Shown here: positions 12,931 through 21,025 of the stretch, one piece after another | Numbering within the stretch: position 1 is the stretch's first letter | Layout: each line of letters begins with the position of its first letter | Source of the DNA: Limnohabitans sp. 2KL-51 | Lineage (GTDB): Bacteria > Pseudomonadota > Gammaproteobacteria > Burkholderiales > Burkholderiaceae_C | Assembly: GCF_003063645.1 (NCBI RefSeq) | Contig: NZ_NESJ01000017.1 | Span: 5,181-37,180, forward strand | DNA length: 32,000 nucleotides | Reading direction: 5' to 3' | Made by a program: the position numbers and the translations under genes | Notes under the pieces: model-generated | Database searches by the model: none | Told to the model about the DNA's origin: nothing | Seen by the model: only the letters and a program-made list of their open reading frames with translations

Positions 12931-13006
12931 GGCCCGGTAGCTCAGTTGGTAGAGCAGCGGATTGAAAATCCGCGTGTCACTGGTTCGATTCCAGTCCAGG
13001 CCACCA
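12931..13006 (+). tRNA. tRNA-Phe (anticodon GAA at 12964-12966), 76 nt with encoded CCA
   Basis: Hand-folded cloverleaf: acceptor GGCCCGG/CCAGGCC (one C5:A68 mismatch), D arm GCTC-AGTTGGTA-GAGC, anticodon arm GCGGA-TTGAAAA-TCCGC, variable loop GTGTC, T arm ACTGG-TTCGATT-CCAGT, discriminator A, CCA. Confidence 0.93.
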
Positions 13007-13007
13007 G
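12962..13007 (+). repeat. att direct repeat copy A (3' part of the intact tRNA-Phe; attL of island 1)
   Basis: TTGAAAATCCGCGTGTC..TGGTTCGATTCC...CCAGGCCACCAG recurs at 19623-19668 and, shortened, at 23655-23691. Confidence 0.85.
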
Positions 13008-14782: not shown

Positions 14783-15040
14783 ATGAGCACACCACAACAA
14801 CGACTTGAAGAAATCGCAGAACAAGAAAAGAAACTTGCTGAAGAGAAGAAAAAACTGCTGGAAGCAAGTAAAGATGCTGACTTGGAACTGGTGAAGAAGT
14901 TGTGCAAGCAACACGGATTTACAGCAACACAACTGCGTGGAAGTTTGAAAGCCAAGGGCAGTAAGAAGACTTCTGCTGCAACTGAAAAGAAGCCTGCAGC
15001 AAAGAAGCCTGCAGCGAAGAAAACAGCCAAATCCAAGTAA
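14783..15040 (+). CDS. H-NS-like N-terminal domain protein with a Lys/Ala/Pro-rich histone-H1-like tail
   Basis: AAGGAG RBS. The product has a coiled-coil N-terminus (RLEEIAEQEKKLAEEKKKLLEA) and then LVKKLCKQHGFTATQL, which resembles the central dimerisation segment of betaproteobacterial H-NS-family proteins. The tail is KKPAAKKPAAKKTAKSK, encoded partly by a 15-bp tandem duplication at 14987-15016. The canonical H-NS C-terminal DNA-binding motif is absent. Confidence 0.6.
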   Translation: MSTPQQRLEEIAEQEKKLAEEKKKLLEASKDADLELVKKLCKQHGFTATQLRGSLKAKGSKKTSAATEKKPAAKKPAAKKTAKSK

Positions 15041-15755: not shown

Positions 15756-15825
15756 GGGTATGGTTTATTAAAAAGCACGGTTTTAGTCAGAGTAGGTTTG
15801 ATGTAGTGAAAAACCGTGCTTTTTG
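15756..15825 (+). repeat. Island-internal long-loop hairpin element, copy 1
   Basis: GGGTATGGTTTATTAAAAAGCACGGTTTT, a ~24-nt loop, then GTGAAAAACCGTGCTTTTT. A closely related copy lies at 18919-18983. Confidence 0.8.
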
Positions 15826-15864: not shown

Positions 15865-16533
15865 ATGGCAGCGGCAGCGAGAACGACAAAAGATATCATT
15901 CAAGCATACCGAACGGTGCGGCAAGTTGAAGCATTAGCACAAGCAAAGTTGGATGCGCTGCTTGAGACAAACGCACTCTACAAGTTGTTTGAACCAGATA
16001 CAAAGCATCCTTACTATGCGTTGGCAAGTGCTGGTAAAAATATGCTTGCTGCTTTTGAATCGAGTATCGCTGGTGTAAGGGAATGGACGATTGGCAGTGG
16101 AACAATTAGCGAAGAACTGGACAAAGTCAAAGCACGGCAGATAGTAAATGAAGAAGAAGAAGATGCTGAATTGGATGCATTGCGAATAATTCAGCCAGTT
16201 GCAATGACCGAAGCAGAAGTAGCAGATAAATTGATGTCAGCCTACTACTCTGCTTGTGCTGTTTGGATCAAAGTAAAAGAAAGTGTATTAAAAGCAGAAT
16301 TGTCCGATTTGTATGGCAAAAAGAACATCAATTTGCACAAAGAAAAACCTGAAGTAAAACTAACAAAAGAAGCAAATGCTGCGATTCGTCAAATCTTGAA
16401 AATTGCCAAACAACTGAGAGACTATGGAAATGGCAGCAGCACTATTCTAGTAGAACTGGAAAAGAAACAGGTTATGCGTGGATTGTCTGGACAAGGAAAA
16501 GATGCGTTGATTGAATTGATGTTGAAGCCGTAA
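15865..16533 (+). CDS. Hypothetical protein (222 aa)
   Basis: GGAG RBS and a long ORF. I recognise no motif. Confidence 0.65.
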   Translation: MAAAARTTKDIIQAYRTVRQVEALAQAKLDALLETNALYKLFEPDTKHPYYALASAGKNMLAAFESSIAGVREWTIGSGTISEELDKVKARQIVNEEEEDAELDALRIIQPVAMTEAEVADKLMSAYYSACAVWIKVKESVLKAELSDLYGKKNINLHKEKPEVKLTKEANAAIRQILKIAKQLRDYGNGSSTILVELEKKQVMRGLSGQGKDALIELMLKP

Positions 16534-17106
16534 TCAAACCAACTCAACTGCACGCCGTTTGACATCGTCATTGACGGTGATGTAGCGTTGTGTAGTTGAA
16601 ATGCTCTTGTGTCCAGCAAGTGATGCAAGAACGAACACTGAAACGCCTTGACTTGCAAGTGAAGTGAGAAATGTCTTGCGACCACTGTGCGAACTGGCAC
16701 CACTAACGCCAGCCTTTCGATACAGCCAATAAAAGTGTTGTGCCAGTGTGTTGGGTGAGAAACTGCAGCGTGGTCCGCGATGTGTGGGGAACAAAGGCAA
16801 TGCTGGGTCTTTGTTGGTGCGTGTAGCAATGTAGTCTGCCAACTCTTGTTGCAAACGGCTGTTGATGTAGATAGTGCGAGCGTGTTGGTGTTTGACACGA
16901 TGAGCAGCAAGAAAAACCTCACTACGCACACAGCCCTTGCTGTCTAAAACATCACCCAGTGTCAGTCCTGCAACTTCTGAAACACGAAGTCCTGCTGCAA
17001 CCGTCATCATCAGCATTGCCCTGTTGCGTTTTGCGTAGGGTTGAGTTGATGTGTAAGTGAGCACTCGATCAAGTTCTGCGGGTGTAAGTGATTTTGCTGT
17101 TGCCAT
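16534..17106 (-). CDS. Short (190 aa) catalytic-domain-only tyrosine recombinase
   Basis: ATG at 17106 lies 6 nt after GGAG; the listed TTG at 17118 is less likely. A full catalytic set can be read: R (GLRVSE), K (RVKHQHARTIYI), HxxR (SSHSGRKTF), H (AGHKSI), Y (TQRY). There is no N-terminal core-binding or arm domain; the size class matches FimB/FimE-type recombinases. Confidence 0.85.
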   Translation of the reverse strand: MATAKSLTPAELDRVLTYTSTQPYAKRNRAMLMMTVAAGLRVSEVAGLTLGDVLDSKGCVRSEVFLAAHRVKHQHARTIYINSRLQQELADYIATRTNKDPALPLFPTHRGPRCSFSPNTLAQHFYWLYRKAGVSGASSHSGRKTFLTSLASQGVSVFVLASLAGHKSISTTQRYITVNDDVKRRAVELV

Positions 17107-17986
17107 ATGTTGCTCCAAATAATGTGCGTGAAATAAGTGTGCGTTCTTATCGGTGATGAGGACAAGTGAAACCCGATGCTTTGGCGGGTTGATAGCGATC
17201 TGTTCAAAAACAAGAGGTTGCGTTGCCGTCCAAGTAGTTTGTGTATTCTGTTATCTCTCAAGTATTTACGCTGCAGCGTGGGTAGTGAGCAACGAAACGA
17301 GCAAGAACGCATAAAACGCCCTGCAACGGCGTTTTGACCGCCGCCAGCATCGCAGCGAGCAAGGACGAAAAGATCACCGCGTGTAGGGCTGATTTGAGGT
17401 GCTGCTGCGTGTTTGTGCCCAAAAGTCAGTTGCTGCACCAAAAAATCTGCTGCGTAATTTCTGCGTGGTTGCGAGATCTCACCACCTGGTGATTTGCACT
17501 AACACGGGTGTTGAACAAGAGTGTGGTCATACTTTCGTTTGACCGATGTTTTGCTGACAGATGAAACAAGGGTGTAGAGCGAACTGGCGTTCGCTGTGCT
17601 GTCGTAATGCTCAAGTCGCTTCGCTCCATCGCATTACTCAGCACCACTTGCTTCGCGTTCGGTGTTTGGTATTGACTGGTTTGGGAAAGTTTTGAGCAAA
17701 CGACGGCTATGTCATCGAAAGATGAACAGAAGCCGCCGTGTCGTTCTGGTCAGTGCAAAGCCCATCGCAGGACGAGATTGAAAGAGTTTGACGCAAGACG
17801 AATGTATTGAAACTTGCAAACTGCTTCTGCATTGATTTGCATTGCAGCAACTCTGCGGCTCACTCAATGCAACAAGCCTCCAATCCAACCTGTTGCGAGT
17901 GCGGGGTCATTAGCCGTCATATTACAACCCGCGTTTGTTCCCTTTGTTTGAGCAGTGGAGTATCTGCTGTAGTAGTGCCTGAATGT
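17107..17986. other. ~880-nt ORF-poor, hairpin-rich spacer (candidate ncRNA or cis-acting recombination/regulatory region)
   Basis: Only weak ORFs occur here: two of 73 aa (one running past 17986) and a TTG-initiated 143-aa ORF overlapping the recombinase start. Hairpins lie at 17313-17335, 17479-17492, 17578-17595, 17604-17637 and 17699-17745 (the last with a GAAA tetraloop). Confidence 0.4.
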
Positions 17987-18310
17987 TTAGTGTTGTGCCT
18001 GTGCCAAATGTCGGTGCTGTTTGAATAGTTGTCTGTTGATTTTGCTGCTGATGTTGAGAATGGGATTGGCTGCTGTGGGTTTGAGTTTTATTCTTGTGTT
18101 CTTGTGTGCCATTTGATGCTGAAATGTTTCCAGTGTCGTGCGTTGATATTGGGTCAGTAGGTTGCTGTGTTGTGTGAGTAGAGCGTGTGCCTGTTGTTGT
18201 GCCTGTAGTAGTCGAATGTGCGTAGTGCCAAATGTCTGGACAGCAATGCCGTTGTCTCGCAACCAGTCTGCTGTCAGTCCGTCATCCATAAAGTTCTTGT
18301 ATTTGTTCAT
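17987..18310 (-). CDS. Hypothetical Gln/His-rich protein (start uncertain; the ORF extends to 18385)
   Basis: ORF of 107-132 aa. None of the candidate starts (GTG 18385, ATG 18310, ATG 18289) has a clear SD. Confidence 0.45.
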   Translation of the reverse strand: MNKYKNFMDDGLTADWLRDNGIAVQTFGTTHIRLLQAQQQAHALLTQHSNLLTQYQRTTLETFQHQMAHKNTRIKLKPTAANPILNISSKINRQLFKQHRHLAQAQH

Positions 18311-18463
18311 ACAAGTATTTAGCAACGACCAAACAATGCCTGTGTAAAAGTGAATGATTGTTTGGTGTGTGTGGCACTTTGACACTGGACGGCATAAAGA
18401 GGTTGTCCAGATGTTGGTGATGAAAATAAAGTTAGTTCATTGCTACACAGAAAGGACAACGCA

Positions 18464-18904
18464 ATGACAGCACTGACAGGTTTGAAATTGACGGCGGCAC
18501 AGAAGCCCACGCAAATGAGCCCCGTTCAACAACGCCGCAACAAGTTGGCAAAACGCTTGTGGGAGCAAGCAGAGTTGGCGAAAGCACAGCAAACGGGTGG
18601 CACATTTGCACCCAAAAAGTTCCGCTCGATTACAGATGCGAACACTGGCGAACGCAAGCAAGTGGAAATGAGCAAACGGGTGAAGGCTTGGTGGTTTGTT
18701 GGTGATAACGGTAAGTTGGTATTGAGCGTGAGATACGGCACCAAAGTGCTTGAGTTGGCAAAGGGTAAGTGGGCAGTGGAAGTGGGTAGTGAAAAGGATT
18801 TGGTGCCCACGCTTGAACTGCTGAAGGGTGCGGTATTGGGTGGTGAGTTGGATGCACAGATTGAAGCAGCGTCCAACAAATTGCGTGAGGGCTTTGGAGG
18901 GTAA
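18464..18904 (+). CDS. Conserved hypothetical island protein (146 aa)
   Basis: AAAGGA RBS before the ATG at 18464. The sequence (SPVQQRRNKLAKRLWEQAELAKAQ...KRVKAWWF...GELDAQIE) resembles small proteins I recall from tRNA-associated islands, possibly the DUF6641 family. That recollection is unverified. Confidence 0.65.
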   Translation: MTALTGLKLTAAQKPTQMSPVQQRRNKLAKRLWEQAELAKAQQTGGTFAPKKFRSITDANTGERKQVEMSKRVKAWWFVGDNGKLVLSVRYGTKVLELAKGKWAVEVGSEKDLVPTLELLKGAVLGGELDAQIEAASNKLREGFGG

Positions 18905-18918
18905 GGATTGGGGGTAGA

Positions 18919-18983
18919 GGGTATGGTTTATTGAAAAGCACGGTTTTTGCCACGCTGCTTGGGTAGGGTGAAAAACCGTGCTT
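18919..18983 (+). repeat. Island-internal long-loop hairpin element, copy 2
   Basis: GGGTATGGTTTATTGAAAAGCACGGTTTTT, a ~20-nt loop, then GTGAAAAACCGTGCTT. Same orientation as copy 1. Confidence 0.8.
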
Positions 18984-19622: not shown

Positions 19623-19668
19623 TTGAAAATCCGCGTGTCGATGGTTCGATTCCGTCCCAGGCCACCAG
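19623..19668 (+). repeat. att direct repeat copy B: displaced tRNA-Phe 3' fragment (attR of island 1, attL of island 2)
   Basis: TTGAAAATCCGCGTGTCGATGGTTCGATTCCGTCCCAGGCCACCAG. It has no tRNA 5' half, so it is not a functional gene. Confidence 0.85.
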
Positions 19669-19673
19669 ATTCA

Positions 19674-19712
19674 CCCCACAGTTTCGCAAGAGGCTGTGGG
19701 GTTTTTCTTTTT
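19674..19712 (+). terminator. Hairpin terminator element, copy 1 of 3
   Basis: CCCCACAG, loop TTTCGCAAGAGG, CTGTGGGG, then TTTTTCTTTTT. Confidence 0.7.
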
Positions 19713-19783
19713 CCGAAGCGTAAAACACACGTTGCTGCCTACGCTGTTGGAACTTTACGTTTACGTTGCTGTGACTTTGCCCT

Positions 19784-21025
19784 ATGACGCACAGCACAGA
19801 CACAGAGGTAGTGACACAGAACACGCGACTCCGCGTGTCAGTTGCCGCACTCGCAGCAGCACAGCCCAACATTTTGTATTTGCGTGACGGTGACGTGGTG
19901 TTGTACAGACGCAGCCGCAGTCTGCTGTATCAGTGCCGTTACCGACTTGCTGACGGTACTTGGCACAGAGTCAGCACACGCAAAGCGTCAGTTGAACACG
20001 CCGTTACCGTTGCGTGTGATTTGTATGACGAGTCACGCTACAGACAACGGCTGGGTTTAGCACACCGTACACACACAGTCGCACAGATTGCTGCTGTTTG
20101 CTGTGCTGAACTGCGTACAAAAATAGACGGCAGCACTGGCAAAACAGCAAGTCACGATTACCTGTCGTGTATTGAACGCTACTTTGTGCCGTACTTTGGC
20201 GAAAAATGTCTTGAACAGTTGACGCACACAGACGTGCGTGAGTTTGAGTTGTGGCGTGACAGACAGATGCGACGAAAACCAGCAACGTCAACACTCAACA
20301 ACTTTACAAGTGCGTGGAACAAGTTGATTGAAACTGCGGTGTCGCGTGGCTACATTTAAGAACGTGTGCCCGTTCCCAAGTTGACAGCACGTGGCGAGAA
20401 AGGGCGAACACGTCCAGCATTTACAGAACAAGAAGTTCAACAGTTGCTGACATTTATGGACGTGTGGCAAACGCAGGGACGTATGGAAGTTGAGAAGGAA
20501 ATACGTCCGTTGCTGCGTGACTACATTGAACTGCTGCTGTTGACAGGAATGCGACACGGCACAGAAGCAATGAACATCTGTTGGCAGCACATTGAGTGGC
20601 ACACGCACAAAGACGTACGTTACATACGCATATGGGTTGACGGCAAAACTGGCGGACGTTGGCTCATAGCAAAACACCGTGCTGTTGACGTGCTGCTGCG
20701 GCTACAGCAACGGCAAGCAGACATTAAACATTTGACGTTGGACACAGTGCTGTCAACACGTGCCACACACAAAATCTTTCGCTTCAGCAACGCCTACCAC
20801 CCGCACAGTTTTGTGGGCACGTTTAGACGCTTGATGCGTGATTCGGGTTTAGCACGGACAGCAGAGGGTGAAAACAGAACCTTGTACAGCCTACGTCACA
20901 CCTACGCTACGTTGGAACTGCTGAACAACAGCACAGACATACACACGTTGTCGAAGCAGATGGGCAACTCAGCAGCAATGATTGAGCGGCACTACTCAAA
21001 GTTGACGGCAACTATGGCGGCGTAG
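19784..21025 (+). pseudogene. Integrase of island 2, interrupted by an in-frame TAA at 20357-20359
   Basis: ORFs 19784-20359 and 20366-21025 are in the same frame and collinear with the island 1 integrase. Int1 reads GYISERVPVPKL where Int2 reads GYI*ERVPVPKL (TCA to TAA). A second stop (TAG at 21023) trims about 4 C-terminal residues relative to Int1. Confidence 0.85.

Follow-up and report, generated by a model that had tools for sequence, protein, structure and literature searches.

A structured RNA and its small-protein partner form a two-part cassette of uncultivated tailed phages and of a Limnohabitans tRNA-Phe island

Introduction

The FimB/FimE invertases are tyrosine recombinases of ~190-200 amino acids (aa) that comprise essentially a catalytic domain and lie next to a long non-coding region. 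A gene resembling them in these respects is present in a 32,000-nucleotide (nt) stretch of DNA from Limnohabitans sp. 2KL-51 (NCBI RefSeq assembly GCF_003063645.1, contig NZ_NESJ01000017.1, positions 5,181 to 37,180, forward strand), referred to here as the window; it belongs to a genomic island inserted in a tRNA-Phe gene (island 1) and is preceded by a spacer of ~880 nt (17107-17986). We report that this spacer is two parts joined, a 274-nt structured RNA (17697-17970) and a recombinase-proximal region (17107-17696), and that the constant partner of the RNA is a small open reading frame (ORF) upstream of it, not the recombinase. Unlike the FimB/FimE systems, the locus shows no invertible segment and no conserved inverted-repeat pair, a single orientation is kept in 89 loci, and the closest solved structures of the recombinase are Xer catalytic domains.

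Other described systems share further traits with this locus. The bridge RNAs (seekRNAs) of IS110 elements are also structured non-coding RNAs beside a recombinase gene in a mobile element; however, the enzyme is a DEDD/RuvC-like transposase there and a tyrosine recombinase here, the RNA loops described below are invariant rather than programmable and lack complementarity to the attachment (att) sites, and either of RNA and recombinase can be found where the other is absent. In a 2026 review on recombination guided by RNA, tyrosine recombinases appear solely as conventional enzymes guided by protein (PMC13604230), and no RNA-associated tyrosine recombinase was found in our literature searches. 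Polynucleobacter-1 (RF01718), listed as cis-regulatory and of unknown function (Weinberg et al., 2010; PMC2864571), is likewise an orphan structured RNA of freshwater Burkholderiales, and occupies the same slot in sister islands such as L004 (loci collected in this work carry L numbers); it is unrelated in sequence and structure to the window RNA, which differs also in having a protein partner and phage copies. The phi29 pRNA, GOLLD and ROOL are, as the present RNA, phage-encoded multi-helix non-coding RNAs, and in several of our phages the RNA lies beside packaging genes. They differ from it in phage type and RNA architecture, no Rfam family matches it, and here the RNA is invariably preceded by a small ORF, with a stop codon that falls within or just before the RNA 5' end. 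Finally, phage satellites and tycheposon-like islands (phage-inducible chromosomal islands, P4; Hackl et al., bioRxiv 10.1101/2020.12.28.424599) have in common with island 1 a tyrosine integrase, insertion in a tRNA 3' half, tandem arrays split by partial tRNAs, and cargo together with phage-related genes. In contrast to them, no primase/replicase, small terminase (terS), capsid or known helper-sensing genes were recognized here, the element has an additional recombinase consisting of the catalytic domain alone as well as a slot for RNA cassettes, and dependence on a helper is putative.

The Structured RNA

When 22 collinear loci are aligned, the three codon phases take equal shares of the changes in 17107-17986 (0.33/0.33/0.33), and third positions take 63-72% of substitutions in the recombinase gene, 49-66% in the gene of a DUF6641 protein beyond the spacer, and ~50% in the small ORF. 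The equal shares therefore mark the spacer as non-coding and its 143-aa and 73-aa ORFs as spurious, in agreement with the initial annotation, made from the window alone, which had seen only weak ORFs there. Conservation is uneven: 17684-17983 stands above the flanking genes (89-93% identity to the window across relatives, vs. 77-86% for the recombinase gene), 17284-17683 is variable, and 17084-17283 is conserved again. The block 17660-17990 was recovered by nhmmer in 46 loci, always in the same orientation, and a conserved non-coding region does lie beside homologous recombinases, in 69 distinct loci.

All the hairpins listed in the initial annotation, and the near-repeat flanking one of them, are present at the coordinates given there, although taken alone they amount to no more than chance (minimum free energy z-score of -1.5 in both halves of the spacer). 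Folding energies of the single sequence are unexceptional, and the argument for function is a comparative one that does not depend on the hairpins themselves. The stem at 17699-17745 proved to be helix P7/P7b of the covarying RNA, its supposed GAAA loop reading UUUC on the RNA strand; the hairpin at 17578-17595 is conserved in sequence, and that at 17604-17637 sits in a poorly conserved stretch.

Comparison strongly supports the segment 17697-17970, so that the idea of a functional non-coding spacer with a structured RNA is upheld by conservation without periodicity and by covariation. Ten helices were defined by hand in an alignment trimmed to 277 positions, from which the covariance model R1 (277 positions, 58 pairs) was obtained; RNAalifold recovers part of the fold. 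R1 scans covered the collected loci (89 recombinase loci and the viral-contig loci), and gave one copy in the window and copies in 47/89 recombinase loci. In alignments fitted to R1, 96.2% of the pair cells of 38 full-length island copies are standard pairs, 34/58 pairs show double changes vs. 20.2±2.0 after shuffling (0/500 as high), and the covariation score is 0.329 vs. 0.128, with slid controls at ≤0.059. The 12 phage copies, not used to build R1, reach 93.2% paired cells, 48/58 pairs with double changes, and a score of 0.574 vs. 0.179. Compensatory change is exemplified around the P2 loop (GCGGG...CCCGC vs. CCAGU...ACUGG), and the loops are invariant across the 38 island and 12 phage copies. 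Paired positions hold 176 G·U cells and 24 A·C cells; the minus strand is therefore taken as the folded strand, which is also the sense strand of both neighboring genes.

Rfam 15 against the window gave no family for this RNA at gathering thresholds and only chance-level matches at E≤5, and no description of a 274-nt RNA of this kind was found in literature searches: it is an uncatalogued orphan structured RNA. As a separate observation, the P2 loop segment GACGGCU (17919-17913, minus strand) is perfectly complementary to the P7 3' strand AGCCGUC (17708-17702), so that a long-range pairing of another kind, or a switch, would be feasible; the invariant loop gives no covariation signal. The features of the locus are collected in Table 1.

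Table 1. Features of island 1 and of the cassette slot (window coordinates, except for the last row).
Feature	Position	Strand	Basis
tRNA-Phe(GAA)	12931..13006	+	ARAGORN; Rfam tRNA 70.3 bits
attL side of island 1, 3' half of tRNA-Phe (repeat)	12962-13007
Full-length tyrosine integrase, 430 aa	13118..14410	+	Pfam PF00589; sub-threshold SAM-like N-terminal match; PHROG integrase
Tyrosine recombinase, Xer-like catalytic domain only, 190 aa	16534..17106	-	Pfam; structure alignment; codon periodicity
GGAG Shine-Dalgarno of recombinase	17113-17116	-
Recombinase-proximal non-coding region	17107..17696	-	No codon periodicity; no convincing consensus fold
Hairpin AAAACGCC/GGCGUUUU, then short U run, terminator-like	17313..17335	-	74-sequence alignment, by eye
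Structured RNA, 274 nt, about ten helices	17697..17970	-	Covariance model R1, 308 bits in window
RNA helix P1	17968-17964/17955-17951	-	R1 coordinates
RNA helix P2	17932-17928/17905-17901	-	Loop with 16-nt core AAUAUGACGGCUAAUG, invariant in 38/38 copies
RNA helix P3	17896-17887/17878-17869	-	R1 coordinates
RNA helix PJ, enclosing P4 and P5	17853-17850/17787-17784	-	R1 coordinates
RNA helix P6	17774-17768/17748-17742	-	R1 coordinates
RNA helix P7, with inner P7b	17739-17731/17708-17700	-	R1 coordinates
Small ORF, 107 aa plus stop, all-helical, basic C-terminal part	17987..18310	-	Codon shares; family; co-occurrence; AlphaFold2
Extended -10-like motif TGCTAAATA, conserved	18316..18324	-	5 nt before small-ORF ATG; alignment
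DUF6641 protein, divergent, conserved flank of cassette slot	18440..18904	+	Pfam PF20346 1e-11; phrog_31551 8e-26; synteny
Partial tRNA-Phe copy (attR), end of island 1	19623..19668	+	Blocks matching tRNA 3' half; blastn
Type-2 cassette loci	L004 (4950-5600), L007, L033, L055, L059, L068, L071, L072, L082, L088

The Small Protein Partner and the Phage Copies

The small ORF lies directly upstream of the RNA in 38/38 RNA-positive island loci with enough sequence and in 0/20 RNA-negative loci, its stop codon being 17 nt ahead of the start of the RNA model. The neighboring ORF had initially been given as 132 aa, an over-extension (18311-18385) of the true 107-aa protein that begins at ATG 18310. 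Its family numbers 162 proteins and carries no Pfam domain; searches of Pfam, PHROGs and NCBIfam returned nothing, and the all-helical AlphaFold2 model (predicted local distance difference test score of 78) had no informative structural neighbor and no Rop-like fold in a Foldseek search of the PDB (best E = 3.2). The motif TGCTAAATA is common to loci of either of the two cassette types described below, and is also found just ahead of the first hairpin of the second type, which points to a putative extended -10 promoter serving the cassette slot; its distance of 5 nt from the ATG suggests a leaderless small-ORF mRNA. A consensus promoter scan of 16300-18600 gave 0 sites.

The same pair occurs in phages. 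The P2-loop motif TGNAATATGACGGCTAATG was found in 14 IMG/VR contigs, R1 confirming 13 full-length copies; when viral contigs were scanned further with short motifs, R1 accepted 4 more as full-length among 77 new loci, the rest being mostly chance. Only one RNA-bearing IMG/VR contig is itself an island like that of the window. The small ORF and the RNA stand together in at least 16 phage contigs of IMG/VR, a module shared with candidate helper phages. Their small ORFs encode 72-159 aa and end within the first 20-55 nt of the RNA (13/13 phage contigs with ORFs listed), most contain the motif L(I/V)GYWAK..G, and all have a basic tail with an arginine/lysine-rich C-terminus; aligned by hhalign, the phage profile matches the island family over 90 columns with an E of 8e-5 and a probability of 61%. 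No match to the phage versions of the RNA was found in cultured phages.

The surroundings are those of tailed phages. Tail-fibre-sized proteins are encoded in the phage contigs, and the gene order runs tail fibre, transmembrane protein, Zn-ribbon protein, small ORF, RNA, and then terS or terS and the large terminase gene (terS-terL), identified by PHROG terminase matches. TerS and TerL follow the RNA in L097, and a TerS-like gene does so in L130 and related contigs; the RNA directly precedes terS in L097, L130, L106, L093 and L098, and lies beside an HNH endonuclease gene in some other phage contigs. For the 12 full-length phage copies searched by tblastn, no relative of the small recombinase or of the other island proteins was present in the fetched DNA. 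The small ORF and the RNA are thus a two-part cassette of uncultivated tailed phages, often just upstream of terS, and of islands.

This position could be taken to mean that the RNA is a cis-acting leader which, with an N/Q-like small protein, controls read-through into the downstream genes (terS-terL in phages, the recombinase in islands), a reading that would tie expression of the island recombinase to the phage late programme. The RNA is indeed oriented like its downstream genes in all contexts, the arginine/lysine-rich tail would suit such a protein, and a terminator-like hairpin (17313-17335) separates RNA and recombinase. On the other side, a strict scan for intrinsic terminators behind the RNA, covering the flanks of 12 phage and 8 island copies, gave only 2 isolated matches and no consistent terminator; the cassette of L101 is a lone plus-strand unit among minus-strand genes; and ~590 nt of partly variable sequence intervene between RNA and recombinase. 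Moreover, 274 nt with ten helices far exceed known nut or put elements. We consider the leader unlikely, with something to be said for it.

A packaging element, either a pac/cos site or a packaging RNA resembling phi29 pRNA, copied by the island for use by a helper terminase, is rather improbable too. The immediate proximity to terS, terS-terL or HNH endonuclease genes in several phage contigs speaks for it, as does the fact that an island devoid of terminase or capsid genes has exactly this segment in common with phages; in addition, the very long invariant stretches could be DNA recognition sequences. However, compensatory changes and the G·U asymmetry indicate selection on a folded single strand, which a double-stranded pac/cos site does not need. 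No Rfam family, pRNA included, matched the 12 phage loci at gathering thresholds, the consensus has neither a 5'/3' closing helix nor visible intermolecular loop-loop covariation, and one motif of the alternative cassette gave 0 matches among viral contigs.

The Cassette Slot

For 67 of the recombinase loci, ≥900 nt of upstream sequence are available, and 20/67 lack the RNA; where present, it lies 512-650 nt before the recombinase ATG (47 island loci, three of them at ~1030-1080). The slot is fixed between the DUF6641 gene and the recombinase, and loci with either cassette have in common its first ~125 nt, adjoining DUF6641, and its final 420-550 nt, up to the recombinase ATG. In 10/20 RNA-negative loci an unrelated, hairpin-rich element of ~500 nt occupies the same place (type 2); it is non-coding, with phase shares of 0.33 each and compensatory-looking hairpins, and in L004 the segment 5084-5181 matches Rfam Polynucleobacter-1 (47.6 bits, E 7e-9). 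R1 does not match the type-2 loci, nor does RF01718 match the window. Among the other ten RNA-negative loci, four have a 153-aa ORF and four a 453-530-aa ORF in the slot; the latter (L005, L006, L050, L060) is on the opposite strand and is followed by repeated short sequences, and might be a replication protein with iterons. The slot is therefore swappable, housing a phage-derived cassette in a satellite-like tRNA-Phe island.

These data bear directly on whether the RNA, alone or with the small protein, is a cofactor or guide that supplies site recognition to the recombinase, in the manner of IS110 bridge RNAs. The enzyme lacks a core-binding domain, the RNA precedes it in the same orientation in 47 island loci, with rather little change in spacing, and loci devoid of the RNA often hold another structured non-coding cassette in the same place. 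Nevertheless, the phage copies come without recombinase, 20/67 recombinase loci come without RNA, and the cassette type does not track recombinase similarity, the recombinases of type-2 loci being 84-88% identical to the query and so inside the type-1 range. The loops are invariant where guide segments would vary; complementarity of the RNA to attL, attR and tRNA-Phe is not of note, with no match of ≥9 nt at the att repeats and a single 9-nt match overall, between the 3' flank of the RNA and the DNA left of attR; and the terminator-like hairpin lies between RNA and recombinase leader. A guide is accordingly very improbable, and we hold it equally hard to believe that a particle of small protein and RNA docks on the recombinase and supplies the missing DNA recognition, alternative cassettes being interchangeable specificity modules. 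The earlier notion of an RNA belonging to the recombinase finds no support in these comparisons, the RNA tracking the small ORF instead.

The Small Recombinase and Its Proximal Region

Translation from the ATG after the Shine-Dalgarno sequence yields 190 aa, and from a TTG start 194 aa. Pfam detects PF00589 alone (2e-26), and the protein aligns with residues 102-273 of the XerC-like structure 4a8e and 108-281 of XerD, i.e., with the catalytic domain alone: it begins at Xer position 102-108, and the N-terminal core-binding domain (~100 aa, Xer type) is absent. The catalytic set R41, K72, H140, R143, H166 and Y175 is complete when aligned to XerD and XerC-like chains, so that Pfam and Xer alignments both agree with the enzyme first described, one having all catalytic residues and no N-terminal DNA-binding domain. 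Most of the best 120 of 2879 homologues are 190 aa long, and the short form is therefore the native one; its relatives are overwhelmingly of Limnohabitans, other Comamonadaceae or lake-metagenome origin. Its conduct with respect to the RNA argues for a separate module, not an RNA-guided enzyme.

The block from 17107 to ~17520 is highly conserved in sequence in the 69 distinct loci, whichever cassette lies upstream, and fits the "cis element" alternative of the initial annotation, being conserved without a consensus fold. A structured RNA at 17104-17520 was considered and rejected: its consensus fold (-32 and -39 kcal/mol on the two strands, over 416 columns with ~84% paired) is weak, with neither strand favored. 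The arms of the hairpin at 17313-17335 change together, as judged by eye, which sustains the earlier call; it was not detected by strict terminator scans. The whole of 17107-17696 is a probable promoter/leader or DNA cis element; we infer that 17107-~17520 holds the promoter and leader of the recombinase itself, and it may in addition be the DNA substrate of the enzyme.

Two further readings concern this region. In the first, the small recombinase would be a Fim-like switch that inverts a promoter-bearing segment of the spacer. Size and architecture do resemble FimB/FimE, the NCBIfam model PRK09870 is matched over positions 11-180 of 200 (E 1.1e-7), and imperfect inverted repeats exist in the spacer, e.g., 17373-17383 with 17483-17493. 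However, the match scores 31.7 bits, far under the cutoff of 221, the conserved blocks contain no inverted-repeat pair, and 89/89 loci are collinear, a minus-strand search (word size 7, E≤0.05) giving no match; no part of the spacer is inverted in any of them, and the phase-variable switch once envisaged is scarcely credible.

In the second, the RNA would be a replication origin or ColE1-like primer RNA of the excised island, multimers being resolved by the recombinase at a site in 17107-17520. The DNA-level conservation of the proximal block would fit, and no replication protein was recognized among the island proteins with Pfam, PHROG and NCBIfam. A long structured transcript with a small helical protein loosely recalls RNAII and Rop. 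Against this stand the lack of a Rop-like fold, the presence of the same cassette amid structural and packaging genes of tailed phages, and the failure to find a dif/cer-like core (two ~11-bp inverted arms, 6-8-bp spacer) in the conserved blocks of 17107-17726, a search made with no known site sequence to go by. By blastn the spacer matched none of 50,697 phage and 72,556 plasmid records, so that mimicry of the oriT or cos of known replicons is not detectable; the oriT/origin-like possibility that had been raised is left without similarity to plasmid or phage records, and an origin is highly unlikely.

The Island and Its Neighboring Genes

Island 1 is a low-GC element of ~6.7 kb in which integrase, cargo and unknown genes, small recombinase, spacer, small ORF, DUF6641 gene and a 131-aa gene follow one another between the repeats of the tRNA 3' half (Table 1). 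An integrase and direct repeats of the tRNA 3' half around a small element are the marks of a tRNA-targeting integrative island. Members of its family measure ~6-7 kb and integrate into the tRNA-Phe gene of Limnohabitans and further Comamonadaceae, frequently as tandem copies, the Limnohabitans isolates Rim28 (L002) and Rim47 (L001) being among the carriers; no terminal overlaps, as expected of circular contigs, were seen among the 89 loci. In the window, a second, degenerate island lies behind the partial tRNA-Phe (19623-21025), its integrase split into ORFs 19784-20359 and 20366-21025 and probably a pseudogene; islands are also in tandem at the same tRNA in L080.

Some additional features were observed. 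A repeat of ~80 bp, at ~15770-15824 and ~18934-18983, contains the 14-bp inverted repeat AAAAGCACGGTTTT ... AAAACCGTGCTTTT; the ~80-bp repeat is located a short way ahead of a 222-aa gene and overlaps the GTG at which the 131-aa gene is annotated to start. It recurs in related loci, and might act as operator, as bidirectional terminator or as small RNA. An 85-aa lysine/alanine-rich protein (14783-15040) with the tail KKPAAKKPAAKK is conserved in related islands and in L091, and may be a histone-like or H-NS-like DNA binder. Lastly, L003 (CALQKH020000010.1), labelled as an Akkermansia muciniphila metagenome-assembled genome, bears a Limnohabitans-type island at 81-91% nucleotide identity, and this contig is probably mis-binned or a contaminant.

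Proposed Role and Significance

Taken as a whole, we favor, with a probability of about 0.6, the explanation that a phage-derived cassette of small protein and RNA resides in a satellite-like island, the recombinase being separate from it. The cassette would be transcribed on the minus strand from the extended -10 at 18316-18324, and the RNA would fold in the 3' portion of the transcript that carries the small ORF. Bound by the basic small protein, it would then give an RNA-protein particle. Such a particle might serve a phage function, probably in the late or packaging phase, because of the position of the cassette before terS, and the island, probably a phage satellite, would carry a copy of its own with which to tap into this step of the helper phage or to disturb it. 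Structure, distribution and associations are observed directly, and the late or packaging-phase role of the particle is deduced from them.

Several points weigh against this explanation. The interaction of protein and RNA is suggested by co-occurrence and by the basic tail, and no structural neighbor, Pfam or PHROG family backs RNA binding by the small protein. That the folded molecule is RNA, as opposed to single-stranded DNA, is indicated by strand asymmetry and gene orientation; the pair counts, coming from alignments fitted to R1, are somewhat biased toward the model structure, and the single-sequence z-score of the RNA half is unremarkable, as mentioned above. No primase/replicase, terS, capsid, packaging or known helper-sensing gene was recognized in the island, whose satellite status is itself a deduction. 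Besides, the fairly constant distance between RNA and recombinase leaves room for a functional link within islands.

With respect to its significance, the RNA represents a new orphan class of ~275 nt, found in freshwater phages and in satellite-like islands of an abundant lake bacterium, and with an obligate small-protein partner. Orphan RNA classes have repeatedly become new biochemistry: HEARO and the RNAs of IS605-orfB elements became the ωRNAs, and the ends of IS110 the bridge RNAs. Polynucleobacter-1, unexplained since 2010, gains a genomic home, the slot of satellite-like islands upstream of the small recombinase. Two questions are also separated, namely the role of the RNA, which belongs to phages and satellites, and how a recombinase without a DNA-binding domain finds its site, for which the choice of candidate substrate narrows to a block of 400 nt with DNA-level conservation.

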